This document shows, in pieces, positions 1 through 12,417 of a stretch of 64,000 nucleotides of DNA (positions within the stretch are counted from its first letter, which is position 1; every line of letters starts with the position of its first letter). Both the position numbers and the translations under genes were made by a program. Under the pieces are notes generated by a model. The model was not told where the DNA came from. It did no database searches and saw nothing but the letters and a program-made list of their open reading frames with translations. The stretch is taken from positions 1,024,001-1,088,000 of the forward strand of contig CAWFOU010000001.1 of assembly GCA_963817525.1 (NCBI GenBank), in the 5' to 3' direction. The stretch comes from an uncultured archaeon. Lineage in GTDB: Archaea; Thermoproteota; Nitrososphaeria; Nitrososphaerales; Gagatemarchaeaceae.

Positions 1-2
1 AC

Positions 3-1775
3 AACGTGCAGAACCTGCAGCTGCGCTGGCTCTACCAGATAGCAGTCAACCCCTTCAACATCCCTGGCGCCCCGCCGGCCTTGGGAATAGAGACACAGCC
101 GATAGTCTCGCAGGGCATCATATACATCGCGACTCCTTACAACGACGTGATCGCGCTGAACTCCGCGACCGGATCCTTGCTTTGGTCGGACCAGTTCAAC
201 ATGACGTCGTTCATCGGGGAAAAATGGTGGTCGGGGGCGTACGTGATAAGCGGCCTCTCATTGTACAACCAGACGCTCTACGCGATGGCCTCTGACACCA
301 CTGTCTATGCCATGAACGCGATAACAGGGACCATCGAGTGGACGATTCCAGCCGTGGCAGCGAACATACAGGGGAACACGGGAACCTACTACGGGGAAAA
401 GGCACCCATCATCGTGGGCGACAACATCATAGTGAGGGCCTCGACGACGGACTACGGAGGCAGGGGGTTCGTCGCGGCCTATAACCTCCAGTCCAGGCAG
501 CTTTCCTGGATCTGGTACTCGACGCCTCCCTCGACGGGACCCATTGATACGAACTGGGACATGCAGGACATGGTGACCCTCGGGAACGGCTCCACGGTGG
601 ATTACGGACAGCCGCCGGGGAACATACCTGCGTACCCTGGCGACTGGGGAACGACCACCCAGGACCAGTTCTTGGCGGGGGGCGGAGCCGCGTGGGGGCT
701 GATAGCGGTCAACAACGCGACAGGCGTGATCTACTTCTCGACTGGACACCCGTCTGATGCGTACAACGCGGCCCTCAGGCCGGGCCCCAACCTATACACT
801 GACTGCGTCATAGCGCTGAACACCACCGACGGGAAGATGCTCTGGTATTACCAGATGACGTCTCACGACATCACCGAGCACGAAGGAGGGTGGAGCGTGG
901 GTCTCTCAACCGTTACCATCAATGGGACGGCGGTCCAGGTGGTCACCCAGGCCTCAAAGAACAACGAGATCTACGTGCTCAACGCCCAGACGGGCAAACC
1001 TGTCTACACGCCGATAAAGGTCGGGCCGCCATCGAAGAACGACTTGAACGACGGCCTGACCAGCGACTCCACCCCGCCGGCCAACCTGAACGCCTCCCAG
1101 ACCCTTTTGGGCATCGACCAGGAGATTTGCCCGGGGACCGACGGCGGGATAGAGATGGCGCCGGCGATAGACGGGAACATGCTCTACGCGGTGACCCAGA
1201 ACGCGTGCGGAGAGATGACGCCAGGACCATACACCTACAAGGGGGAGACGCTGAGCGGGTTCCTCTATACGGGGGACCAGTCGGCCGAGCAGAACGCCAC
1301 CCTTTACGCGATAAACCTCTCCACCGGGCAGTCGGTGTGGCATGACAACCTCCCGAACAGGTATCAGGGGTCGTCGGCGGTGGTCAGCGGGGGCGTGATT
1401 TACGTGATTGACAGGGCCGGGATACTGTACGAGTTCAACCAGCAGACGGGAAAGGAGATCAACAGCGTGGGACTCAATGGCGTCGGCGCCGCCGGGGTCG
1501 CCATCGGGGAGGACAGCGCGGGCAACATGATGGTCTTCGCCCCTGCTGGAGGAGGAAGCGATCCGGAGCCGACCTCGGGAGTGCTCGTCGCCTACTGGCT
1601 AGGCCAGACTACTACGACTAGCTCTGGCACCGGCACATCGTCCGGCACGGCCGTGGGGCTGGGTGGCCTAGAGCAGCCGATCATCATAGTCCTGGGCGTC
1701 GCGGTAGTAGTGCTCGCTATGTACGTGCTGGTGAAGAGACGGGCGCCTCAGCGACCTGCGGCCGGGACTCAGTAG
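3..1775 (+). CDS. PQQ-binding beta-propeller dehydrogenase with C-terminal membrane anchor (5' end lies outside the window)
   Basis: Repeated ALN..TG...W blades, GRGFVAAY, RPGPNLYTDCVIAL and WYYQ motifs. A Thr/Ser linker precedes a TM helix and basic tail. The frame is open from the window start and NVQNLQL matches an internal segment of the paralogue at 3378. Confidence 0.9.
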   Translation, partial: NVQNLQLRWLYQIAVNPFNIPGAPPALGIETQPIVSQGIIYIATPYNDVIALNSATGSLLWSDQFNMTSFIGEKWWSGAYVISGLSLYNQTLYAMASDTTVYAMNAITGTIEWTIPAVAANIQGNTGTYYGEKAPIIVGDNIIVRASTTDYGGRGFVAAYNLQSRQLSWIWYSTPPSTGPIDTNWDMQDMVTLGNGSTVDYGQPPGNIPAYPGDWGTTTQDQFLAGGGAAWGLIAVNNATGVIYFSTGHPSDAYNAALRPGPNLYTDCVIALNTTDGKMLWYYQMTSHDITEHEGGWSVGLSTVTINGTAVQVVTQASKNNEIYVLNAQTGKPVYTPIKVGPPSKNDLNDGLTSDSTPPANLNASQTLLGIDQEICPGTDGGIEMAPAIDGNMLYAVTQNACGEMTPGPYTYKGETLSGFLYTGDQSAEQNATLYAINLSTGQSVWHDNLPNRYQGSSAVVSGGVIYVIDRAGILYEFNQQTGKEINSVGLNGVGAAGVAIGEDSAGNMMVFAPAGGGSDPEPTSGVLVAYWLGQTTTTSSGTGTSSGTAVGLGGLEQPIIIVLGVAVVVLAMYVLVKRRAPQRPAAGTQ

Positions 1776-3237
1776 GCTCTCGGCCCCTCCAAGCAAAGTA
1801 CACCGCGATGGCCGCGAGACCGGCTCCGACCAGGAAGAAGAGGTCCGTAGCGCCTATGTATTTCCCGGGCGTGATAGTCCCGCCGGTCTTGTCTAGACCG
1901 AAGAGGTAGAGCCCGATGAGGATGCTCCCGATGGCGAGGCTGATGCTCTGCCCGGTCGACCGCATCATTCCGAGTATACCGTTTGCGGATGCCCGGTCAC
2001 CGGGAGGGACGGAGGCGAGGTTGGCGTTAGTGTTGGTGGGAGCGAATATCCCCACGCCCGACCCGAGCATCGCAAGGAGGAATCCTATGAGGTAAATCGA
2101 AGAGGTCTCGGCGAGGGTGCTAAGCAAGAGGAGGGCCACGGTCACTATGACACACCCGGCGACCGAAGGGTCGCGGCTGGATGTCCTGCTGGCGATCCAT
2201 CCTCCGAAGAGCGCGAAGACGGTGACCGAGAGGGGTTCGACGGTGAGGAGGAAGCCGGCGCTGAGAGGGCTGACCCCTCGGATTAGTTCGAGATAGAAGG
2301 AAAGCAGGATGAGCGTTCCATAGTGCGCCATGTAGACGAAGAGGGCCGAGAAGTTGGTTGACGCGAACATGGAGTTGGTCCTGAACGTCTCGAAGTTTAT
2401 GACGGGCTGCGAGGTGGTCCTCTCTCTGGCGACGAAGAGTACGGTGGAGACCACCGCAACAGAGCCTATCAGCCACAGGGGTATCGATATCTCCACGTTG
2501 GGGTAGAAGTAGAAGGAGAGGAACTGCAGCTGCTGGATGTACATGTTGATCGGGATCGTCCCGTTCGAGGAGTATGAGGTGAGGGCGACCAGCGCCGACC
2601 CGAGCGCCCCCGTGAAGAAGATGGCGCCGAGCCAGTCCGTCTTGACCTTGAGGTTCTTCGGGCTCTCCCTTATCGCGAAGAGGGAGATGGGTATCGCGAT
2701 GGCAGCTATCGCCGACCCGGCATAGAAGACGTACCTCCAGCCCAGCGACGAGGTCACGTCGACTATCGTGCCGGTCAGCGCGACCCCGACGGTCATCCCG
2801 ATGTAGATGACCGAAATGTGGGTCCCGAGCGCGAAGCCCCTCTCCTTGGGTGGGAACGCGTCGACGATGAGCGCCCTCCCGTTGGAGAGGATGAAGGCGC
2901 CGCCGAGGGCTTGGATGACCCTGTAGATCAGCAGGTCGTAGATGGTGAGGGAGTTCCCCGAGAGGTACGCGCCGATGGAGAATAGTGCGAGGCCCAAGAT
3001 GAAGTAGCGCTTGCGCCCGTGCCGGTCCGAGAACTTGCCGAAGATCGGCATGAAGGCGGCGGTGATGATGAGCGACTCTAGGGGGACCCACAGGACCAGC
3101 TGGACGGGGGCCTTCAGGTTCAGGGCGATGGTGGGAAGTATCAGCGACATTATCCCGGTGTCTAGCGGCGGGACGAAGTTGCCGATGTTCACCGCTGCGA
3201 GGGAGAACCACTTGCGCCGCTTCGCGAGCGCTTGCAC
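1717..3237 (-). CDS. MFS transporter, DHA2 (EmrB/QacA-like)
   Basis: GKFSDRHGRKR motif A, RVIQALGG, and about 14 hydrophobic segments. Confidence 0.9.
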   Translation of the reverse strand: MQALAKRRKWFSLAAVNIGNFVPPLDTGIMSLILPTIALNLKAPVQLVLWVPLESLIITAAFMPIFGKFSDRHGRKRYFILGLALFSIGAYLSGNSLTIYDLLIYRVIQALGGAFILSNGRALIVDAFPPKERGFALGTHISVIYIGMTVGVALTGTIVDVTSSLGWRYVFYAGSAIAAIAIPISLFAIRESPKNLKVKTDWLGAIFFTGALGSALVALTSYSSNGTIPINMYIQQLQFLSFYFYPNVEISIPLWLIGSVAVVSTVLFVARERTTSQPVINFETFRTNSMFASTNFSALFVYMAHYGTLILLSFYLELIRGVSPLSAGFLLTVEPLSVTVFALFGGWIASRTSSRDPSVAGCVIVTVALLLLSTLAETSSIYLIGFLLAMLGSGVGIFAPTNTNANLASVPPGDRASANGILGMMRSTGQSISLAIGSILIGLYLFGLDKTGGTITPGKYIGATDLFFLVGAGLAAIAVYFAWRGREPTESRPQVAEAPVSSPART

Positions 3238-3377
3238 GTCACGCGGCGCGCGGATGGCGTCCTTTAAGACCGTTCCGAGGGCTCGCTAGCCGGCTCTGAG
3301 AACGGAGGACGAAAGAGGTGGGCGTCAGGCAATCCAACCTTAAAGAGGCCCCGCCGACGGGACGGGCGAGAAGGCCC

Positions 3378-5312
3378 ATGGCGGATTCTCGGAGGTGGAG
3401 GTCTCTTTCGGCCGGGCTCCTGCTCTTCCTCTTGCTCTGGCTCGCGCTCCCGGTAGCCCCCGCCGAGTCGAAGCCTGCAGCCGCATCGGGCTCCTCGGCC
3501 CAGTGGACCACGATGAACGCGAACTCCAACCACACCAACTACGTCCCCCAGAGTCAGATCGGGGCCTCCAACGTACAGGACCTGCAGCTCGCTTGGACCT
3601 TCCCGTTCCCCGCGGTCACGAGCGTGCCGGGCCTCAGCGTCACGGGGCAGGGCGCGATAGCGCCGCCGCTGGTGGTCAACGGCACGGTATACGTCGTGAC
3701 CAACTACCTCACCGTCTACGCGATAGACGCCGAGACGGGAGGCGTCCTGTGGTCTTATCAGGCGGTGCTCAACGAGACGGGGCTCCCACTGGGGCCTCTG
3801 GACGGCCATATGCACGGGATCAACTATTACCGCGGTGACATATGGGTGAGCTGGCCTGACTGCTCGGTGGACGCCCTGAACGCCATCACGGGGACAGTCG
3901 ACATGCAGATTTCTGACATCTGCAAGGACATCCCGGGGAATGCTGGCTACTACGACGGGGTGGGGGTGCCCTCAGTCTTCGACGGAGACACGATGATCTG
4001 GACCAGCTCGGTCTCAGAGGGGACCAACGTGGGGAGGGGGTTCGTGGCGGCCTACAACATCACGAGTGGTGAGCTGCTTTGGAGGTGGTACGTCGCCCCG
4101 CCCGCTGGAGGGGACCCCGACTGGGACACGGACTCTTGCTCGACCAATTCCACCTCGACGTGCCACGGGAACGTCGCCCCCTACCCCGGAGACTGGGGGA
4201 CCTTGACCCTCGACAACCCCGGCCTCACCGGTCCCCTGGCCGGGGCGGGGCCAGGCTTCGGCGACCCCTTGGTGGACACGCAGCACGGGATAGTCTTCGT
4301 CTCGACCTCACAGGCGTCCCCCGACTGGAACGGGACATACAGGCCGGGGCCCGACCTCTACGCCGACTCCGTCATCGCGCTGAACGCCACCAACGGCGAC
4401 ATGATCTGGTTCTACCAGACAACCCCCCACGACCTATACGACTTCGACTGCGGCTGGAACACCGTGCTCGGGAGCGTCACGCAGGGAGGCAGCACTCAGG
4501 AAGCGATCTTCAAGGCGTGCAAGAACGGGTATCTCTACGCCATCAACGCCCTGACCGGGAAACTCCTCTGGTACTTCGACCCCCCCACCGTGTCGAGGCT
4601 CGGCACGGGGAACGCCAACTACGTGGTGACTGGGAACTACTCAGCTACCCTCCCTTGGATAAACTACCCGTCAACACAGGAGTTCGAGCAGTGCCCCGGG
4701 GAGAACGGGGCAGTGGAATCGGATATCGCCTACTCCAACTCCCTGATATACGTCGCCACGATGAACTTCTGCAGCTTCGGGGAGGTGGCGCCGGTCGGGA
4801 TCGAGGGGGCGGAGTACTGGGGGGTCGGGAACATCACCCCTGACTACTCGCAGGCCAACACCACCATCTACGCCGTCCACGCCTCCAACGGCTCGGTGGC
4901 CTGGAGCTACAACATGGCCTCGATCCCCTACCGGGGCTGGCTCACGGCGAGCAATGGGCTGCTTTTCGCAGGGGCCCTCGATGGCAGCATCCACATCCTC
5001 AACGCCGCCACGGGGAAGCAGGTCTACGACCTCTACGTCGGGCCTCCGCTCTACGAGAGCCCGACGCTGGGCGCGGGCATCGACGGACAGGTCTACCTCT
5101 ACCAGCTCACCGGGGACGCGGCGTACGGCTCCCTGGGCGGGGGGACGCCGGGGGACATCATCGCCTTCACCCTCCAGGCCCCTCCTCCTCCCTCGTGGGA
5201 GAGCTACGTCCCCGCGGTCGCCGTAGGGCTCCTCGCGGCTGTCGTTGTAGTCCTGCTCGTGGACAACAGGTCGCTGAGGAACGCCGCGAGGCGGTCGCCG
5301 CCGCCGGCCTAG
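3378..5312 (+). CDS. PQQ-binding beta-propeller dehydrogenase, signal peptide plus C-terminal TM anchor
   Basis: Signal MADSRRWRSLSAGLLLFLLLWLALPVAPA; RPGPDLYADSVIAL; WFYQTTPHDLYDFDCG; CPGENGAVES; C-terminal TM. Start placed at ATG 3378. Confidence 0.92.
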   Translation: MADSRRWRSLSAGLLLFLLLWLALPVAPAESKPAAASGSSAQWTTMNANSNHTNYVPQSQIGASNVQDLQLAWTFPFPAVTSVPGLSVTGQGAIAPPLVVNGTVYVVTNYLTVYAIDAETGGVLWSYQAVLNETGLPLGPLDGHMHGINYYRGDIWVSWPDCSVDALNAITGTVDMQISDICKDIPGNAGYYDGVGVPSVFDGDTMIWTSSVSEGTNVGRGFVAAYNITSGELLWRWYVAPPAGGDPDWDTDSCSTNSTSTCHGNVAPYPGDWGTLTLDNPGLTGPLAGAGPGFGDPLVDTQHGIVFVSTSQASPDWNGTYRPGPDLYADSVIALNATNGDMIWFYQTTPHDLYDFDCGWNTVLGSVTQGGSTQEAIFKACKNGYLYAINALTGKLLWYFDPPTVSRLGTGNANYVVTGNYSATLPWINYPSTQEFEQCPGENGAVESDIAYSNSLIYVATMNFCSFGEVAPVGIEGAEYWGVGNITPDYSQANTTIYAVHASNGSVAWSYNMASIPYRGWLTASNGLLFAGALDGSIHILNAATGKQVYDLYVGPPLYESPTLGAGIDGQVYLYQLTGDAAYGSLGGGTPGDIIAFTLQAPPPPSWESYVPAVAVGLLAAVVVVLLVDNRSLRNAARRSPPPA

Positions 5313-6109
5313 CTTGCGAGCGAGTCCGCGAGCGGCCAGTCCTGGACGACATAGGCAACGAAGATCGCGTCGTGGAGGCTCCAGTAGATGTCCGCCATCG
5401 ACTCGGCAGCCCTGATCGCGCGCAGCTGCGCCTCCCTGGTCTGGCAGTATCGCAGCACGATGCGAAGGGTCGTCTCGTTGGCCTCGTCAAGCTGCCCAAG
5501 CCTCGACATGAAGAATCTGTAGCCTTCGGGCTCTATCCACGGATAGTGGCGCTTGAAGGCCTCGATCCTCTTGACCAGCTCCCCCTTTGCGAAGTATTCT
5601 ATCAGCGAGGCGGCGACGCCCTCCGTCCAGTCAGCCCTCCTCGCGAAGTTCACGTACCCGTCCACGGCGAACCTCACCCCGGGAAGGCAGGTCGCCCTTA
5701 GGATGTCGTCCCTCGCGACTCCCGCCGATTCCGCGAAGCCCACCCACCCCTCCACGTCGCCGATGCTCCCGCCCAGCCCCTCGCGCTTCAGGATCCTGCC
5801 GATCCATAGCCGCCTCACGTCGGTCTCCGGGCAGTTCGAGAGGATGGCCGCGTCCTTGATGGGGATGTTCTTCTGGAGGTAGAACCTGTTGATGATCCAG
5901 GCCCTGACCTGTTTCGGCGTGAGCTTCCCCTGGTAGAGCATGACCATGAGGGGGTGCTTGTCCTGGTTCTTCACCCTGAGCTTCCCTTCGAGGAGGGTGA
6001 GGAACTCTGCCCTCGCGAGCGGCGTCCCCTCCACTACAGCCTTGGGCCTCGCGGCCTGGCTCGCGGCGCGGGAGGCCTTGGCCCTCGTCGCCGTCACCCG
6101 CTTGCTCAC
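5309..6109 (-). CDS. PqqC-like protein (heme-oxygenase-like fold), catalytic residues substituted
   Basis: NRFYLQKNIPIKDAAILSNCP, LPGVRFAVDGYVNFAR and HYPWIEPEGYRFF are PqqC signatures. The GTG start at 6109 overlaps the TGA of the upstream regulator (GTGA). Confidence 0.88.
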   Translation of the reverse strand: MSKRVTATRAKASRAASQAARPKAVVEGTPLARAEFLTLLEGKLRVKNQDKHPLMVMLYQGKLTPKQVRAWIINRFYLQKNIPIKDAAILSNCPETDVRRLWIGRILKREGLGGSIGDVEGWVGFAESAGVARDDILRATCLPGVRFAVDGYVNFARRADWTEGVAASLIEYFAKGELVKRIEAFKRHYPWIEPEGYRFFMSRLGQLDEANETTLRIVLRYCQTREAQLRAIRAAESMADIYWSLHDAIFVAYVVQDWPLADSLAS

Positions 6110-6876
6110 GGCTTGAAACCCCTCCTCTTGACGGCGTAGACGCAGCCGGGCGACCCGGCCTTCGGGTTCAACCTCTCTAGGCGCAAGGTCCCTCCGTCTC
6201 TCGCCTTGATCGCTCCCGTGAGCATGCCCTTTGTGAATGAGCAGACGAGGCTGCCGTACTCCTTGTTCTCGAAGCACTCTGTGCAGGTCAGCCTCGGCTC
6301 CTCTCCCCTCCTGACCGAGGCGGTGACCTTAGCGAAGCCCTCCGCCGCGAGGTACTCCGAGAGCTCTCCCAGCCCGCTCCGCACGGTGGCGAACTTCAGG
6401 GAGGAGGCTATGAGCCCGTCGCCGACGCGCCGGCCAAAGTCCTCGAAGATGCCGTCGTCCATTGAGTCGGACTCCGCCAGGAGCCTGAAGAGGTGATAGA
6501 GGAATATCTCCATCTCGTCCGCCGCCTTCCTCTTGGGCTCGAGGTGCAGGCTCATCAGCAGCCTCTCGAACCACTCGTCCAGCTTGGTGAGGGAACCCGC
6601 CCGGTCGTCCTTCCGCCTGGCTAGGGTCAGGGCTCCCTGCTTGAGCGCGTAGGTCTTGCTGTAGATCCCTCCCCGGATGCTGGTGATGTCTGTGATCTCT
6701 ATCATGTCGCGCCGGATGAGAGCCTTGGTGTGGTAGGAGACGGTGGCCTTGGACACGCCGAGGGCCTTTGCGATCTCCGTCGCTGTCCCCGGGCGTCGGG
6801 CCAAGAACGACAGGATGCCGTCCCTCACCCAGCCCTTCGAGGGGGAGCCCCCGCCGTCCACAAGAAGCTGGTTCAA
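6106..6876 (-). CDS. ArsR-like winged-helix transcriptional regulator with C-terminal V4R domain
   Basis: TATEIAKALGVSKATVSYH HTH; C-terminal CTECFE...CSFTKGMLTG...C V4R pattern. Confidence 0.85.
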   Translation of the reverse strand: MNQLLVDGGGSPSKGWVRDGILSFLARRPGTATEIAKALGVSKATVSYHTKALIRRDMIEITDITSIRGGIYSKTYALKQGALTLARRKDDRAGSLTKLDEWFERLLMSLHLEPKRKAADEMEIFLYHLFRLLAESDSMDDGIFEDFGRRVGDGLIASSLKFATVRSGLGELSEYLAAEGFAKVTASVRRGEEPRLTCTECFENKEYGSLVCSFTKGMLTGAIKARDGGTLRLERLNPKAGSPGCVYAVKRRGFKP

Positions 6877-6959
6877 GCGCCCGGCCTGCCTCTCAATCTT
6901 CTGGTTCAGATAATTCTAACTGAGACACCTCTATAAAGGCTCGGCCGCGAAGCGCTCGA
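6877..6959. promoter_or_regulatory. Divergent promoter region (regulator-pqqC-like operon / SET gene)
   Basis: AT-rich gap in GC-rich DNA. CTATAAA at 6931-6937 lies ~25 nt upstream of GTG 6960, consistent with an archaeal TATA box and a leaderless mRNA. Confidence 0.5.
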
Positions 6960-7511
6960 GTGGGTTTGGCCGGGGACGAGGGCGGCGCCGGACGGATGCT
7001 CCGCATCGGCGACGCGGGGCCCAAGGGGAAGGGCGTCTTCGCGGCGAGACGGATAGAGGTTGGCGAGCTCGTCTGGGACTATGCTGGAGAGGAGAGATGG
7101 ATAAGCGACATCCCGAAGAGGCTCTGGAGGTTCTGCTTCCAGGTCGACTACGACAGGTACGTCGTCCCGGAGAATGGATCGGCGGGCTGGTTCATGAACC
7201 ACTCGTGCGAGCCGAATTGCGTGATAATGGGGAGGACCAGGGTGGTCGCCCTCCGGCGGATAGAGGCGGGGGAGGAGGTCACCTTCGACTACTCCACCAA
7301 CGTCGGGTGGGCGGGCTTCGCGATGAGGTGCAAGTGCGGCTCGAAGGCATGCAGGAAGGTCGTGAGGAGCTACGCGTTTCTGCCCGCCGAGCTCAAGGGG
7401 CACTACGGGGCGTGCGTCTCGGCGTTCCTTCTGGGTCCGCGCCCAAAGGCGGCGGGCCGCGGTCCACGGAAGGGCGTCGCGAGCAGGCCTACCCGGTCGT
7501 CGCGAGGCTGA
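6960..7511 (+). CDS. SET-domain protein-lysine methyltransferase with post-SET Zn motif
   Basis: GKGVFA, FMNHSCEPN, GEEVTFDY and post-SET CKCGSKACR. Confidence 0.92.
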   Translation: MGLAGDEGGAGRMLRIGDAGPKGKGVFAARRIEVGELVWDYAGEERWISDIPKRLWRFCFQVDYDRYVVPENGSAGWFMNHSCEPNCVIMGRTRVVALRRIEAGEEVTFDYSTNVGWAGFAMRCKCGSKACRKVVRSYAFLPAELKGHYGACVSAFLLGPRPKAAGRGPRKGVASRPTRSSRG

Positions 7512-8382
7512 AGCCCTTCGCCAGGTAGCGGCGCACCAGAAGGATCAGCGCGAAGGCCGGGACGAAGGCCAGCGAGCCGGCCGCGTTGATCGCGTCCCAG
7601 TCGGCCGACTGGATGCCGCCGAACGCCTCCCCGACGCCCGACCACACCCCGAGGCTCACGGTCTTCGTGGCTGCCCCGGTCAGGAGGCTGGCCATGAGGA
7701 ACTCGTTCCAGATGAGGACGAAGGCGAAGATGACCGTCGCCGCTATCCCCACGGCCACCGATGGGAGGGCGATCCTCCAGAAGATCTGCCTCTCGGACGC
7801 GCCGGAGGTCTCGGCCGCCTCATAGACGCTCGCGGGGATCTCCCTGAAGAACCCGCTCAGCATCCAGACGACGACAGGGACGTCTATCACGAGGTAAGCC
7901 AGGCTCATCCCGAGGTAGGTGTCGAAGAGCCCTATCCGGATGTAGGTCAGGTAGAGGGGCAGCACGATGGCGAAGGGCGAGACGGTCCGGAGAGCCAGGA
8001 GGAGGAACCCCATGGCGCTCATCCCCCTCAGCTTCGACCTCGCGAGCGCGTACCCGGCGGGGACTCCCGCGGCAAGCGCGATGGCGATGCTCAGGAACGC
8101 GATCGTGCTCGAGTTGAAGACGAGCCTGGGAAAGTTCCCCCATTCCAGGGCGTCGCGGATGTTGGCGAGGGTCGGGAAGAAGCCGCCGCTGTAGTAGGGG
8201 ACGCCCGACACAAAGTCGATCCCCTTCCCCGACCAGAGCGGCCCGAGGTCGATGTCGAGGCCCTCGAAGGCCATCGTCATTATCGGCCAGAACGAGAAGA
8301 GCGTGGCGAGGAGGAGGCCCAAGTACACCGGAAGCCGGCGGAGGACCCACGGCCTGCGCTTGGGAGCCCAGCCTTGGGTCAT
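7489..8382 (-). CDS. Carbohydrate ABC transporter permease (MalG-like)
   Basis: EAA loop (YEAAETSGAS), WNEFL, PAGYALAR. ATG 8382 overlaps the stop of the upstream permease (ATGA). Confidence 0.9.
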   Translation of the reverse strand: MTQGWAPKRRPWVLRRLPVYLGLLLATLFSFWPIMTMAFEGLDIDLGPLWSGKGIDFVSGVPYYSGGFFPTLANIRDALEWGNFPRLVFNSSTIAFLSIAIALAAGVPAGYALARSKLRGMSAMGFLLLALRTVSPFAIVLPLYLTYIRIGLFDTYLGMSLAYLVIDVPVVVWMLSGFFREIPASVYEAAETSGASERQIFWRIALPSVAVGIAATVIFAFVLIWNEFLMASLLTGAATKTVSLGVWSGVGEAFGGIQSADWDAINAAGSLAFVPAFALILLVRRYLAKGFSLATTG

Positions 8383-9251
8383 ATCTTCCTCAGCTCCCTC
8401 ATCACGCGGAAGAGGAGGATGGCGGCCAGCAGGGTCACGACCAGGAGGACGAGGGCCGCGGCGGAGATGAGCGGTATGGGTATCACCCCCGACGGAGGCT
8501 CCAGGAGGAGCTTGAACAGGTAGAGGCTGAGCGTGTCGGTCGGCGCCCCGGGATACAGGTATCCGAGCCACCCCGACCAGGCGAAGGGGATCTCGAACGC
8601 CCGCATCGCGTCGACGAAGCGGATGATTATCATGAAGTGCATGACCGGAGAGTTCAGGATCGCCGGGAGGCCGATGGTCCTGAAGGTCCTCCATTTCGAC
8701 GCCCCGAAGACCTCGGAGGCCTCGTTAATCTGCTTCGGCACCGAGGCGAGGATGCTCAGCGCGACGAGCATCATCATGGGCCCCCACTCCCACGAGTCGG
8801 AGAGGACCATGATGAAGAAGTAGAGGTGGTTGCTCGCGACGTTGAAGTAGGGTTGGTGCAAGATGTAGTGCCAGAAGGTGTTGATGTCGTCCCAAAAGCC
8901 GCTAGGGGCGAAGGCGACGCCCGCGATGATAGGGGCCGCGGCGAGGGGCATCAGGAAGACTGCCTCGAAGAACCCGCGGCCCCTCCTGACCAGGGTCAGG
9001 AGGTAGGCGAAGAGGACGCCGAGGACAATCGAGAGGATGGTGCTCCCGGCGGAGTAGAGGACGGAGGTCGAGAGCGCGTCCCAAAAGTCGGCCTGCGAGA
9101 AGAGCTGTTCGTAGTTCGAGAGGCCCACGAACGCGCCTCCGAGGCTGTAGTCGGTGACGCTGAGGTAGACGCTGTAGGCCAGCGGGTAGACCTCGACGAG
9201 GCCGAGCACTGCGATGAGCGGGACGATCAGGAAGTATGCGTTTCTATCCAG
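8379..9251 (-). CDS. Carbohydrate ABC transporter permease (MalF-like); start uncertain
   Basis: YPLAYSVYLS, FVGLSNY, EASEVFGAS and TDTLSLY. The first TM (DRNAYFLIVPLIAV) extends upstream of GTG 9209 to a CTG at 9251. Confidence 0.85.
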   Translation of the reverse strand: MDRNAYFLIVPLIAVLGLVEVYPLAYSVYLSVTDYSLGGAFVGLSNYEQLFSQADFWDALSTSVLYSAGSTILSIVLGVLFAYLLTLVRRGRGFFEAVFLMPLAAAPIIAGVAFAPSGFWDDINTFWHYILHQPYFNVASNHLYFFIMVLSDSWEWGPMMMLVALSILASVPKQINEASEVFGASKWRTFRTIGLPAILNSPVMHFMIIIRFVDAMRAFEIPFAWSGWLGYLYPGAPTDTLSLYLFKLLLEPPSGVIPIPLISAAALVLLVVTLLAAILLFRVMRELRKI

Positions 9252-9536
9252 GAACGAGCGACCTCATGGGGCCTGCGCCGGTGCGAGCCCCCTTGTCAGA
9301 GAGGCGACAGGCCTTTCGAGGCTCGCGCGGCTGGACGACCCGCGCGGTTGGAGAACGGGAAAGCGCAACTGCGGAAGGCCCAACGATGCATCCCCCACTG
9401 CCGACGATTTCTGCGCCCCTTAAAACCATCTGGGTGCACCGGCGAGTTGGTGGGAGACTGACGGCGGCACGGGAACGCGACTTAAATGTCGGCTGTTGCT
9501 CGCAGGCCCGAAGGGCAGCCTTCTGGTGAGAGCGAG

Positions 9537-10226
9537 TTGGGACGAGCCACGGTAGGCATTCAGGGATCGACGCGTACGCGGGCTAAGGTATTCGTCTGCG
9601 TCCTCGCGGCGCTCTTCGTCTTGGGGACGACGTCAAGGGCGTTCGGCGAGGTCACGGACTCCTCTGGAAACGTGGTCTACGTGTTCGGGTCGAACGTCTC
9701 CGAGAACCAGAGCAACTACACCCTGTATTATACGACGCCGACCGTCATCCGGGCGGGCGTGAGCACCAACATGACGTTCTTCGTCTACGTCACCGAGCTC
9801 TCCGGGTGGAAGATACAGAGCCAGACGCAGATACTGGAGATCACTATCAACACCCCGACTACGCAGGTGATAACCGAGAAGGCGCAGAACGCCGTGACCC
9901 TCTACCAGGGAGGCCGATGGGGGCCTTTCAACATGACCTTTGACCTCAACGACAGCCAGATCGGGCTCCGTCCTGGGCAGTCAACCAACGCGACGATCTA
10001 CGCAAATCTGGTGGTCTACGAGGCATACGACAACCCGGCGTCCCCGTTCGTCTCGCCCAGCGGCTACACCCTGACGCTGGCCAACGTGCAGGTCTACTCG
10101 ACGCCCTCCGGCCAAGTTCCAACATCAGACCGCCTGCTCGCGTCTTTAGGGGTGGGAGCGGGCGTCGTGGCGGCGCTGGTCGGGGTCGCCGTGATGACCA
10201 GGAAGAAGGAAGTTCAGGTGTCCTGA
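9537..10226 (+). CDS. Secreted beta-rich hypothetical protein with C-terminal TM anchor
   Basis: Hydrophobic N-terminal signal, several N-x-S/T sequons, C-terminal TM followed by RKK. Start uncertain (TTG 9537 or ATG 9486). Confidence 0.7.
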   Translation: MGRATVGIQGSTRTRAKVFVCVLAALFVLGTTSRAFGEVTDSSGNVVYVFGSNVSENQSNYTLYYTTPTVIRAGVSTNMTFFVYVTELSGWKIQSQTQILEITINTPTTQVITEKAQNAVTLYQGGRWGPFNMTFDLNDSQIGLRPGQSTNATIYANLVVYEAYDNPASPFVSPSGYTLTLANVQVYSTPSGQVPTSDRLLASLGVGAGVVAALVGVAVMTRKKEVQVS

Positions 10227-10265
10227 CCGACCCTTGCGGCGGTCGGCTCCGGGCCCTTGTCTCGG

Positions 10266-10736
10266 CTAGCCGCCCTGGTTGTATCCGCCCGCGATGACCT
10301 GGCACGCAGAGGCGGGTGAGGAGCACTGGTGCGTGTACGGGTCGCAGCTGTTGTCACCGCTACAGCCCGCGTCGAACACGCAGTTGTAGCAGGTCTTCCA
10401 CGGCTCTTGCGTCGGGCCGACTCCGTTACCGCAGGTCTCCTGGAGGAGCGTGCAAAGGGAGGGGCTCGTCCCCGTGGGGCACGCAAAGCTGGGGGCGTTC
10501 GACCCCTTCGCGGGGACCGAGTAGCTGGTCCCGTTGTATACGACGGTGACGCGGTTCTCGCCCAGGACCTGGTTCGCTATGACCTGTCCCTGCCCGCCGG
10601 CGCCGGAGGTGTTCGTCGTCCCAGCCTTCAAGGTGGGGGGGAGCGTGTAAAAGTACACCGCCAATCCGCCGACGATGACCAACGCTATTACTAACGCAAC
10701 TAGTGACGCCTTGAGAATCGCGGCGGTTCTCTTCAT
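10266..10736 (-). CDS. N-terminally anchored Cys-rich small exported protein
   Basis: MKRTAA plus a TM helix, then a T/S/G linker and 9 Cys in the last ~70 aa. Confidence 0.75.
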   Translation of the reverse strand: MKRTAAILKASLVALVIALVIVGGLAVYFYTLPPTLKAGTTNTSGAGGQGQVIANQVLGENRVTVVYNGTSYSVPAKGSNAPSFACPTGTSPSLCTLLQETCGNGVGPTQEPWKTCYNCVFDAGCSGDNSCDPYTHQCSSPASACQVIAGGYNQGG

Positions 10737-10938
10737 GCCGGAACCCGTAGGGTCTTCGCGCCCACGCCCGTATTAGAACTTTGAGTCGCCCCCTGGGCAA
10801 TCCGGCGTTGGGGGGAGGCTAGCGGCACGCGGGTCGTCCTCCCGAGAGAGGTCTTAAATCGGACCCGGTCTCGCCCAGTTCTAGTGACGAGTGGGAGGCG
10901 ACGAATCTCCCGGTGGCTCTCAACAAAACGGTGGACAC

Positions 10939-12417
10939 ATGAATAGACGCGACTTTCTGAGGACGGGTGCCATCTTGGGCGCCGGCGCTGCTGCCGCGGC
11001 GGTGGCCTACGTGGGCTTGAGCCCCAGGGGGAGGACGGGCATCCTCAGTTCGATCGGGTCTAACGCCACCTCGCAGCTGGGGATCCAAGGGCGCCTTAGC
11101 GACCCCTCAGTCCCCACCGAATACAAGGAGCTCCTCACCTGGCTGCAGTCCGTCTCCGGGCCCTACAAGGGGGTCAAGGTCGAGATAAACCTCCAGGACG
11201 AGCCTGATTATCGGGCTCTGCAGGGCCTCGACGTCGACTTCTTCTCAGCGTCGGGGATAAACTCCCAGTACAATCTCAATCCCTACATCCTCAACCTCGA
11301 GCAGACGAGGCTCGCCGTCCAGACCGCGTCGCCGGCCATAGACATCATCGACTTCGACGCCATCGACATACCCTCGTTCGACCAATACCTCCTCTCTCCG
11401 AAGGTCCTGGCGGAGACGTACCCCGACGTCACCTATCCGGGACTGGACCTGGACGACTTCATGCAGACGCCCATGAACCTCATCGCCACGTACCCGCCCG
11501 TCCTCCCTGACGCGCCCACGCCCCCTGGCGAGCTGTTCTGCCTCCCCTTCAACACGCCCGTGATGATAAGATATTACCGGACCGACGTCTACGGCTCGCT
11601 AAACCTGCCCCAACCCGTAACGTGGGACGACTACTTCAGCCAGGTGCAGACCATCGGGACGTCCACCGACATCTACGGCATTGTGAGCCAGGCGTCGACC
11701 AGCACCCCCATCTTCCACGAGTTCACCAACCACCTCTACAGCTTCGGGGGGAGCTTCTGGGACATCGACGGCGAAAGCATCACCCCGACGGTCAACTCCC
11801 CCGCGAACGTCGAGGCCCTGGAGAACTTTGCCCGATTCTACCCCTACACCCTTCCGTCGTCGATAACCTTCACGTGGGACGACTGCGTCGAGGCGATGGC
11901 CCACGGCCAGGCCGCGAACGCCATAACCTTCGAGGACGACTCGGTCTTGATATACGACCCCCTAAGGTCGATCGAGCAGAACAACACGTCCTATTCTGTG
12001 AACCCTGCCGGCCCCAGCGGGGCGTACTCCACCTACATAGGCGACGGGATCGGGATCTCCAAGTTCTCGAGGAACCCCGAAGCCGCATGGCTCTGGCTCC
12101 AGTGGGCGACGGCCGCGGGGACGCAGATGATGCTCGTCGCGGACAACGAGACGAGGTACGTCCCGAGCCGCACGTCCGTTACCAATTCGTCGTTCGTCCA
12201 GGGGATAATCGCCGCGCCGGACTACTACCCCGTCCGTCTCTCGCAGCAGATACTCGCCTCTGGGCAGATAGGGCACATCCCGGCGTTCAAGGGCTCGGAC
12301 GACGCCGCGGACACGATAGCCGCGCAGCTCTTCAACGCCTACACGGGCGCGTCGTCCGCCCAGGCCGCCCTCGACGCCGCCCAGGCTCAGCTCGAGGCCA
12401 ACATCTACACCTTCTAG
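10939..12417 (+). CDS. Sugar ABC transporter substrate-binding protein (SBP_bac_1 type), Tat signal
   Basis: MNRRDFLR twin-arginine motif; LPFNTPVMIRYYRTD, PVTWDDY and EAAWLWLQW. Confidence 0.88.
   Translation: MNRRDFLRTGAILGAGAAAAAVAYVGLSPRGRTGILSSIGSNATSQLGIQGRLSDPSVPTEYKELLTWLQSVSGPYKGVKVEINLQDEPDYRALQGLDVDFFSASGINSQYNLNPYILNLEQTRLAVQTASPAIDIIDFDAIDIPSFDQYLLSPKVLAETYPDVTYPGLDLDDFMQTPMNLIATYPPVLPDAPTPPGELFCLPFNTPVMIRYYRTDVYGSLNLPQPVTWDDYFSQVQTIGTSTDIYGIVSQASTSTPIFHEFTNHLYSFGGSFWDIDGESITPTVNSPANVEALENFARFYPYTLPSSITFTWDDCVEAMAHGQAANAITFEDDSVLIYDPLRSIEQNNTSYSVNPAGPSGAYSTYIGDGIGISKFSRNPEAAWLWLQWATAAGTQMMLVADNETRYVPSRTSVTNSSFVQGIIAAPDYYPVRLSQQILASGQIGHIPAFKGSDDAADTIAAQLFNAYTGASSAQAALDAAQAQLEANIYTF

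Follow-up and report, generated by a model that had tools for sequence, protein, structure and literature searches.

We analyzed a window of 64,000 nucleotides (the whole stretch of DNA considered here; positions 1,024,001 to 1,088,000 of the forward strand of contig CAWFOU010000001.1, assembly GCA_963817525.1) from an uncultured archaeon of the Gagatemarchaeaceae (Nitrososphaerales), in which a gene for a PqqC-like protein lies directly downstream of a gene for a winged helix-turn-helix (wHTH) regulator and runs toward a gene for a pyrroloquinoline quinone (PQQ)-type dehydrogenase, dehydrogenase B (Table 1). The GTG start of the PqqC-like gene (6109-6107) overlaps the TGA stop of the regulator gene (6108-6106) as GTGA. 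The PqqC-like gene and the dehydrogenase B gene are convergent, and both TAG stops lie within the palindrome CTAG at 5309-5312, which leaves no space for terminators in between. An earlier interpretation made from the letters alone (the sequence-only reading) had described the start/stop overlap and the convergence on a PQQ dehydrogenase and had reported the window to be without pqqB, pqqD, and pqqE; the open reading frame (ORF) coordinates confirmed the layout, and a profile search of the window found none of the three genes. The PqqC-like gene represents a distinct, conserved PqqC subfamily that arose within an archaeal (Thaumarchaeota) PqqC lineage.

Fold and active site of the PqqC-like protein

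PqqC is pyrroloquinoline-quinone synthase (EC 1.3.3.11), which catalyzes the eight-electron oxidation AHQQ + 3 O2 -> PQQ. The window protein matched Pfam PF03070 with 112 bits and Klebsiella PqqC (1OTV/1OTW) with 42% identity (E 4e-59, HMMER), and it scored 220.4 bits against the NCBIfam equivalog model TIGR02111, under the cut-off of 240. Its AlphaFold2 (AF2) model had a predicted local distance difference test (pLDDT) score of 92.7 (~60 over residues 1-20) and showed the seven-helix PqqC fold with a closed cavity. The top Foldseek match was PQQ-bound PqqC 1OTW (template modeling [TM] scores, 0.81/0.85; 232 columns), and the model was nearer to this closed form (root mean square deviation, 2.0 Å) than to open 1OTV (2.9 Å). 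Superfamily and fold are also common to CADD and the heme-oxygenase-like di-metal oxidases (TIGR04305; Chlamydia CT610, 1RCW/8VA9), but the window protein scored 54.8 bits on TIGR04305, for which the cut-off is 200.

Residues were mapped by HMMER alignment to Klebsiella 1OTV/1OTW, the chain numbering of 1OTV being the canonical one. R50, K60, R80, Y128, E147, R157, and R179 are retained in the window protein, whereas Y53L, D83K, H84R, D85E, T146I, H154L, Y175F, and K214M are substitutions and positions 23/24 are N/Q. In PqqC structures, R50, K60, R80, R157, and R179 are the contacts to the AHQQ/PQQ carboxylates, and H84, Y175, R179, and K214 have roles in PqqC catalysis. The sequence-only reading had listed the same five basic residues as kept and H84R, H154L, Y175F, and loss of K214 as replacements; the alignment agrees on all of these and adds Y53L and T146I. 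The loss of Y23/H24, which it had also reported, is seen in the window protein but does not extend to the clade described below, in most members of which position 23 is still Y. PDB titles describe both a Y175F mutant (3HLX) and an H154S mutant (3HML) as "in complex with PQQ" and so show that changes at two of the replaced positions, 175 and 154, are compatible with PQQ binding.

The low-confidence N-terminal tail is rich in K, R, S, and P, a character that is conserved among the members nearest the window (L030 to L035), the sequence itself being poorly so; the tail is absent from locus L036 and from most of the more distant clade members (238 to 243 amino acids). At locus L037, the codons that immediately precede the PqqC-like start in frame encode an extremely basic stretch (a run of R and K) without a start codon.

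The replacements define a conserved archaeal clade

The query was aligned by MAFFT with its 120 best database matches, of which the first 60 were archaeal and the next 60 bacterial wherever a source was named. The first 60 were 51 to 95% identical to the query and came, where named, from Nitrososphaerales and Geothermarchaeales. With the query counted, R84 was found in 61/61 clade members and F175 in 59/61 (I in the other two). Among the 60 archaeal clusters, L154 was present in all, position 214 was M or L in 55 (A, V, Y, and one gap in the others), position 53 was L, M, F, or I, and position 146 was I, F, or Y in 59; R50, K60, R80, E147, R157, and R179 were retained in 60/60. All 60 bacterial matches had Y23, H24, Y53, T146, Y175, R179, and K214 intact, with H (56 matches) or Q (4 matches) at position 84 and H, M, or V at position 154.

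An unbiased scan returned 19 clade-specific positions, defined by conservation of at least 90% among the bacterial sequences and sharing by at most 10% of the archaeal ones, including the entire D83-H84-D85 motif (K/R-R-E in the clade); 50 further positions were conserved in both sets. Compared with the Klebsiella PqqC structures (1OTV, 1OTW, 3HLX, 3HML, 3HNH), the window protein is alike in fold and in R50, K60, R80, E147, R157, and R179 but differs at Y53, D83, H84, D85, T146, Y175, and K214 and at 12 further clade-specific positions, and its gene is partnered by a regulator and PQQ dehydrogenases, not by pqqB/D/E. The ratio of nonsynonymous to synonymous substitution rates (dN/dS) of the PqqC-like gene against five same-genus orthologues was 0.115 to 0.166. 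The replacements are a fixed, selected remodeling and not decay; the random decay among close orthologues that would have undone the sequence-only reading was not seen.

We tabulated 174 loci (80 genome and 80 metagenome loci with relatives, 13 loci from related genomes, and the window) and took Y53, T146, Y175, R179, and K214 as the canonical signature. PqqE, PqqB, and PqqD were encoded nearby in 136, 138, and 139, respectively, of the 147 rows with this signature and in none of the 24 rows with the variant signature (21 distinct; three contigs were fetched twice). The remaining 3 rows are the three copies of one genome, G049, with PqqB, PqqD, and PqqE nearby in none. Y53, T146, Y175, and K214 were invariant in 147/147 canonical-signature loci and altered in 24/24 variant rows. 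Variation at position 24 in 36 canonical rows is given little weight, since this residue falls at the margin of the block that tblastn aligned. Of the canonical-signature loci, 98 had M at position 154, 43 had H, and 6 had I, and position 84 was Q in 7/147. Given this natural variation, H154L carries no weight as the sign of lost catalysis for which the sequence-only reading had taken it, and H84 is not absolute.

Variant members scored between 214.8 (L036) and 230.7 (L037) bits on TIGR02111, i.e., under the cut-off, compared with 327.2 bits for the PqqC of locus L057 and 275.5 bits for one of the G049 copies, G049a. L057 is a 4.6-kb contig labeled Nitrososphaerales archaeon TH1177 that carries pqqB-C-D-E, with canonical residues in its PqqC, and it doubles as a positive control for the detection of partner genes. 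If its binning is right, some Nitrososphaerales would have the bacterial pathway; it may also be a misbinned bacterial fragment. It is the sole archaeal-labeled pqqB-C-D-E locus found here, and, provided that the binning is correct, the supposition that archaeal PqqCs in complete operons share the substitutions is not upheld by it.

A rapid maximum-likelihood analysis of 53 rows, with CADD-like sequences as the root, gave the variant clade (20 rows) a Shimodaira-Hasegawa-like approximate likelihood ratio test (SH-aLRT) support of 98 and placed it within an archaeal clade (SH-aLRT, 97) whose earliest branch was G049a, a near-canonical orphan PqqC that retains H24, Y53, H84, Y175, R179, and K214. 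The simplest history would be that Thaumarchaeota acquired PqqC once and that it diverged thereafter.

G049, from another family of the order, has three PqqC-family paralogues, i.e., G049a, one of a third type, and one CADD-like, in a genome without pqqB/D/E. The G049a gene (locus L038, G049:C1:260560-277261) is codirectional with genes for an SBP_bac_6 binding protein and an ABC ATPase and is surrounded by genes for PQQ dehydrogenases, an MFS transporter, and a cupredoxin, a layout that hints at import feeding a PqqC-type protein.

PqqB, PqqD, and PqqE were not found, and the gene is co-inherited with quinoproteins

The genome that contains the window (2.82 Mb, 95% complete, 8.75% contaminated) has one copy of the PqqC-like gene and one of the regulator gene; the search for a second, intact pqqC that the sequence-only reading had called for thus yielded the variant as the single copy. 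Profile searches at curated cut-offs gave no match to PqqB or PqqD in this genome and none to PqqE over the cut-off, the best being a generic radical-SAM protein (74.7 bits versus 381). PqqB, PqqD, and PqqE were likewise not found over the cut-offs in five relatives that carry the variant or a related gene (G018, G009, G012, G027, and G049).

The same genome encodes ~17 PQQ-dehydrogenase paralogues, almost all with Sec-like signal peptides and, in all but two of the full-length ones, with C-terminal anchors. Among 61 related genomes, the variant gene was present in 14/15 with at least 6 PF01011 matches and in 0/46 with 0 to 3 matches; these genomes are kin, and the count does not amount to a statistical test. 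The variant gene is tightly co-inherited with quinoprotein expansions, yet it is not indispensable. Loading of the dehydrogenases with cofactor in the cytoplasm, followed by twin-arginine translocation (Tat), would account for a cytoplasmic PQQ holder but was rejected: the signals of the paralogues are Sec-like and lack a twin arginine, and orthologues of dehydrogenase B do not conserve its SRRWRSL.

The best solved relative of dehydrogenase B was XoxF 6DAM (E 6e-34), and it aligned with other quinoprotein alcohol dehydrogenases too. In the HMMER alignment, a D-F-D of dehydrogenase B (HDLYDFD, residues ~370-377, window 4400-4440) stands opposite the D-Y-D of XoxF 6DAM; the second Asp, a mark of lanthanide-dependent quinoproteins, is present. 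The vicinal Cys-Cys of methanol and ethanol dehydrogenases is absent from dehydrogenase B.

The PqqC-like gene is paired with an MsvR-like regulator

The N terminus of the regulator matched HTH_5, MarR_2, and HTH_20 (ArsR/MarR-type wHTH), and residues 16-233 of its 256 matched the NCBIfam MsvR model NF053755 with 59.3 bits (cut-off, 220). The family is small (107 database matches). Across 78 homologues, C201 and C212 were invariant and C198 and C245 were present in at least 90%; a CxxC is included among these. The Pfam V4R model had no match in the regulator at E 0.01. Foldseek gave the PoxR/MopR phenol-sensor domains and MJ1460, a V4R protein, as the best matches of the C-terminal domain in the regulator model (pLDDT, 83), so that the V4R domain assigned in the sequence-only reading can stand as a V4R-like, four-Cys domain. 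These best structural matches (PoxR/MopR/DmpR, 5FRU and 5KBE; MJ1460, 2OSD; E 9e-5 to 6e-4) are folds that bind small aromatic ligands; the TM scores were low (0.34 to 0.38 by query, 0.42 to 0.54 by target) at 14 to 21% identity, and the matched proteins are sigma-54 activators or stand-alone domains, unlike the wHTH-fused window regulator.

Like the MsvR proteins of Methanothermobacter and Methanosarcina, the regulator combines an N-terminal wHTH with a C-terminal V4R-like domain with conserved cysteines. A candidate operator, an inverted repeat that resembles the TTCG-N7-CGAA type of MsvR, lies at its own promoter and would imply autorepression. It differs from MsvR in its score (59 bits against a cut-off of 220), in its four conserved Cys including the CxxC, in the left half-site, which is TTAG in this genus, and in its operon, which encodes a PqqC-like protein and not oxidative-stress genes. 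MsvR is called unique to methanogens in PMC3729527, whereas the window regulator is found in Thaumarchaeota.

A regulator gene was directly upstream of the variant gene at 10/10 genome loci and 9/10 metagenome loci, the tenth contig having only 369 bases upstream, and the pair was kept down to 32 to 35% regulator identity in the most distant pairs; the conservation of the pair, named as a check in the sequence-only reading, is thus seen at 19/20 loci. The four-base NTGA start/stop overlap was found in 7/11 loci, and 2 more had a short gap or overlap; of the other two, one had a CTG at the overlap site and one a broken regulator frame. Cofolding of the regulator and the PqqC-like protein gave ipSAE scores of 0.01 and 0.03 (mark, 0.32), which we use neither for nor against an interaction.

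A putative operator lies at the regulator's own promoter

A TATA-type block, GCCTTTATAGAGG or a close variant, was found upstream of an operator-like repeat in 11/11 loci (partly N-masked in L032), and the repeat was found at the same place, ~10 bases after the TATA block, in all 11. The pattern GTT[AC]G-N7-[CT]GAAC matched 9/11 loci and had diverged in L036 (TCG-N7-CGAA) and L037 (GAG-N7-CGAA); the half-sites in the nine same-genus loci were TTAG-N7-(C/T)GAA. The repeat resembles the MsvR box, given as TTCGN7-9CGAA in PMC3729527, and is apparently of the same type. A protein bound at this site, downstream of the TATA box and ahead of the start codon, should repress.

The exact 17-mer was unique in the genome, and sites with at most 3 mismatches numbered 3, compared with 0 to 4 in ten shuffled genomes. 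The motif was seen a single time at each locus, at the regulator's own promoter, and was absent from the intergenic region between the MFS and dehydrogenase B genes. On the present sequence evidence, the putative operator supports autoregulation of the two-gene operon and not control of the dehydrogenase genes. Two 3-mismatch sites upstream of genes for solute-binding proteins were considered as an extension of the regulon and rejected, as the count was within the shuffled range and these genes were not conserved in five relatives (0/5 for one; 1/5, at 37% identity, for the other). A second, degenerate match at window position 11048 was inside the coding region of a solute-binding protein and was set aside as chance.

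A conserved TATA-like CTTAAAG lies upstream of the dehydrogenase B ATG at 3378. The intergenic region 3238-3377 and its orthologues have two strongly conserved blocks, CCCTTTA(A/T)GACCGTTCCGAG and TCCAA(C/G)CTTAAAG; the first extends well past a TATA box and may contain an operator for a different regulator.

Layout of the locus

The coordinates of the features are collected in Table 1. The ORF of dehydrogenase B spans 3318-5312(+), its likely start being ATG 3378. Dehydrogenase B was convergent with the PqqC-like gene in 17/20 variant loci, and in the other three (L128, L131, and L155) the contig ended first. The MFS gene adjoined dehydrogenase A or B in loci from three families, G049 included, and the synteny of dehydrogenase A was kept in relatives. 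An aldo/keto reductase gene and a methyltransferase gene are also present at the locus. Among 11 sequencing runs listed, none was of RNA; they were DNA or of unstated kind and derived from soil or peat metagenomes, one of them lacking an organism label.

Table 1. Genes and sequence elements around the PqqC-like gene (window positions)
Feature	Position	Strand	Description	Matches
PqqC-like protein, variant clade (PqqC-V)	5309..6109	-	266 aa, GTG start	PF03070, TIGR02111, 1OTW
MsvR-like regulator, wHTH + V4R-like domain	6106..6876	-	256 aa, TTG start	
Basic, low-confidence N-terminal tail of PqqC-like protein	6020..6109	-	~30 residues	
Operator-like imperfect inverted repeat	6904..6920	-	GTTAG-N7-TGAAC; between TATA box and regulator start	
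TATA box of regulator/PqqC-like operon	6932..6937	-	TTTATA	
PQQ-type beta-propeller dehydrogenase B	3378..5312	+	Signal peptide, C-terminal membrane anchor	PF01011, 182.6 bits
DHA2-family MFS transporter	1717..3237	-	Divergent from dehydrogenase B	MFS_1, 181.5 bits; TIGR00711, 145.8 bits
PQQ-type dehydrogenase A	1..1775	+	5' end precedes window	PF01011, 158.3 bits
SET-domain protein	6960-7511	+		PF00856, 60 bits

Interpretation of the subfamily

We put at about an even chance the reading that the protein is a neofunctionalized PqqC-like protein that binds PQQ or a related tricarboxylate, does not oxidize AHQQ to form PQQ, and serves the quinoproteins. The subfamily would have changed function while the PqqC fold and the five carboxylate-clamping basic residues stayed and Y53, H/Q84, T146, Y175, K214, D83, and D85 were swapped in a fixed, mostly hydrophobic or basic pattern. 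In the cytoplasm, the protein would hold, sense, or salvage cofactor for the many outward-facing PQQ dehydrogenases. Its gene would form a two-gene operon in translational coupling with an MsvR-like wHTH-V4R(4-Cys) repressor, which most likely autoregulates the operon via the operator near the expected transcription start. That it serves as a cytoplasmic PQQ receptor in archaea that cannot make PQQ by the bacterial route, reporting supply or redox state or holding scavenged cofactor, is a more specific proposal that we regard as possible but doubtful. The term "catalytically dead," used in the sequence-only reading, can be kept in part: the clade-wide replacements show that this is not a standard PqqC, but deadness itself is a conjecture, position 154 being variable and the Y175F and H154S mutants holding PQQ.

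Several points weigh against the binder. The retained basic residues are the sole argument for PQQ binding. The canonical loci with the variable position 154 and with Q84 are nearly all beside pqqB/D/E; two of the three residues named as catalytic are therefore not strict, and an altered but working oxidase is possible. K214 does not vary among real PqqCs, and its loss might make PQQ binding weaker. The main weakness is that the outward-facing dehydrogenases could load external PQQ, so that there is no obvious need for a cytoplasmic PQQ binder. The adjacent DHA2-type MFS transporter is from an exporter family, as would suit a cofactor that is produced intracellularly and then exported. One genome rich in PQQ dehydrogenases (G054; 95% complete), with 31 PF01011 matches, lacks any gene of the PqqC family. 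The status of the host as a non-ammonia-oxidizer is taken from the names of its relatives and a cited paper.

An altered enzyme that catalyzes another reaction with an imported relative of PQQ as the substrate, for instance by salvaging a PQQ precursor or adduct or by completing a modified quinone cofactor, with the V4R domain sensing the compound and switching the operon on, is unlikely but credible. The remodeling of the pocket is fixed and strongly conserved, not relaxed, a regulator upstream of and coupled to its enzyme is a common layout, and the C-terminal domain of the regulator resembles the small-aromatic sensors of PoxR/MopR. Import is suggested by the solute-binding protein and ABC ATPase genes codirectional with the near-canonical orphan PqqC of G049, and an ABC importer neighbors the module both here and in L036; ABC transporters are common, however, and proximity is weak evidence. 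The pocket itself argues the other way, since polar or ionizable side chains are lost at five invariant positions and mostly replaced by hydrophobic ones, a poor start for acid-base or O2 chemistry in a cofactor-less enzyme, and no candidate substrate was identified. We think it improbable that the protein is still a PQQ synthase that uses other catalytic residues and is fed by a novel archaeal upstream route or by scavenged AHQQ. Such an enzyme would account for the strict co-occurrence with expanded sets of PQQ dehydrogenases, its product could be exported by the neighboring DHA2 MFS transporter, the natural Q84 and M/I154 of operon PqqCs indicate tolerance at two "catalytic" positions, and the gene is read in this way in passages of PMC10640624 and PMC7300363. 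The four residues Y53, T146, Y175, and K214, all altered here and invariant in 147/147 canonical loci, tell against it, as do the absence of PqqB, PqqD, and PqqE from six genomes, the score under the curated equivalog cut-off, and the canonical residues of the archaeal-labeled pqqBCDE contig.

The model of the sequence-only reading is a special case of the binder, in which a dead PqqC senses PQQ or AHQQ, binds the regulator, and thereby controls the dehydrogenase genes; we judge it quite improbable. Conservation of the pair across genera, even as the regulator diverges to 32 to 35% identity, is in keeping with it, translational coupling would fix the stoichiometry, and in this genus the protein has a basic, disordered N-terminal tail. 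Yet the operator is at the regulator's own promoter only, with none between the MFS and dehydrogenase B genes, and the number of degenerate sites in the genome is within the range of the shuffles. Neither signaling by the PqqC-like protein to the regulator nor control of the dehydrogenase genes by the regulator is supported; moreover, a domain that senses a ligand or redox state is already part of the regulator, and a separate sensor subunit is unneeded. No regulator-PqqC fusion was found among longer proteins at E 1e-20, which is weak evidence against this model. Very improbable, in our estimate, is a ligand unrelated to PQQ, the protein being a binder of or enzyme for some other polyanionic metabolite and the proximity to quinoproteins being explained by a shared island of sugar and alcohol oxidation. 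PF03070 has repeatedly changed function (TenA, CADD, UndA), G049 alone has three different PqqC-family paralogues, and a sugar-type ABC importer, an aldo/keto reductase, and a methyltransferase are encoded at the locus. An unrelated ligand is difficult to reconcile with retention of all five carboxylate-clamping residues and of 50 shared conserved positions and with a phyletic link that is specific to genomes rich in PQQ dehydrogenases (14/15 versus 0/46).

Relation to published accounts

Passages of PMC10640624, PMC7300363, and PMC13374868 attribute importance to PQQ-dependent dehydrogenases in heterotrophic Thaumarchaeota of soil and sea and report high expression of these enzymes for the marine group. 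According to Sheridan et al. 2023 (PMC10640624), the ancestor of mesophilic Thaumarchaeota "gained the PQQ synthase, pqqC," and passages of this paper and of PMC7300363 take the gene as proof of own PQQ synthesis; the passages concerned in these two papers make no mention of missing partner genes or altered residues. Literature searches aimed at archaeal PqqC turned up no description of a remodeled active site or of the pairing with a regulator. As the gene belongs to a separate orphan subfamily without the invariant synthase residues or the partner genes, the step from its presence to own PQQ synthesis is unsafe, and where the literature assigns these archaea a "PQQ synthase," the assignment should be checked; the organisms may rely on bacterial PQQ or on a novel route. 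The subfamily is real, conserved, and previously misannotated, a variant within a known enzyme family whose genomic partnership is new. It offers a clean, testable case of an enzyme rebuilt while its ligand cradle stays, and it extends MsvR-like V4R regulators beyond methanogens. If the protein were indeed a PQQ receptor, no earlier protein would be dedicated to handling PQQ other than in its biosynthesis, and PQQ would act as a "vitamin" that is traded and that sets a limit to heterotrophy by archaea of acid soils and the dark ocean.

Additional observations

The SET-domain gene is divergent from the regulator promoter and was syntenic in 9/9 same-genus genome loci (window counted) and in 5 metagenome loci. 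A sugar-type ABC importer adjoins the module (window 7489-12417) and consists of two BPD_transp_1 permeases and a 492-amino-acid SBP_bac_1 protein with its true start at ATG 10939 and NRRDFLR as a clear twin-arginine signal. One permease ORF, 7489-8694, overlaps 8379-9209 and was probably called too long; permease homologues are near the module in L036 as well.

The PQQ-dehydrogenase paralogues at C7:39475-41490, C10:14185-16194, C14:9663-11679, and C8:147118-148068 have N-terminal regions identical or nearly identical to C7 copies, and these near-identical copies on small contigs may reflect assembly redundancy or very recent duplications. The CADD-like paralogue of G049 (locus L040, G049:C1:745622-762272) has Glu and His at positions 84 and 179 (E84, H179), where the window protein has Arg at both, and matches Haem_oxygenas_2. 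Its gene follows genes for two binding proteins and a fused double permease and is followed by a gene for pterin-4a-carbinolamine dehydratase, and it is probably folate or pterin related rather than PQQ related.

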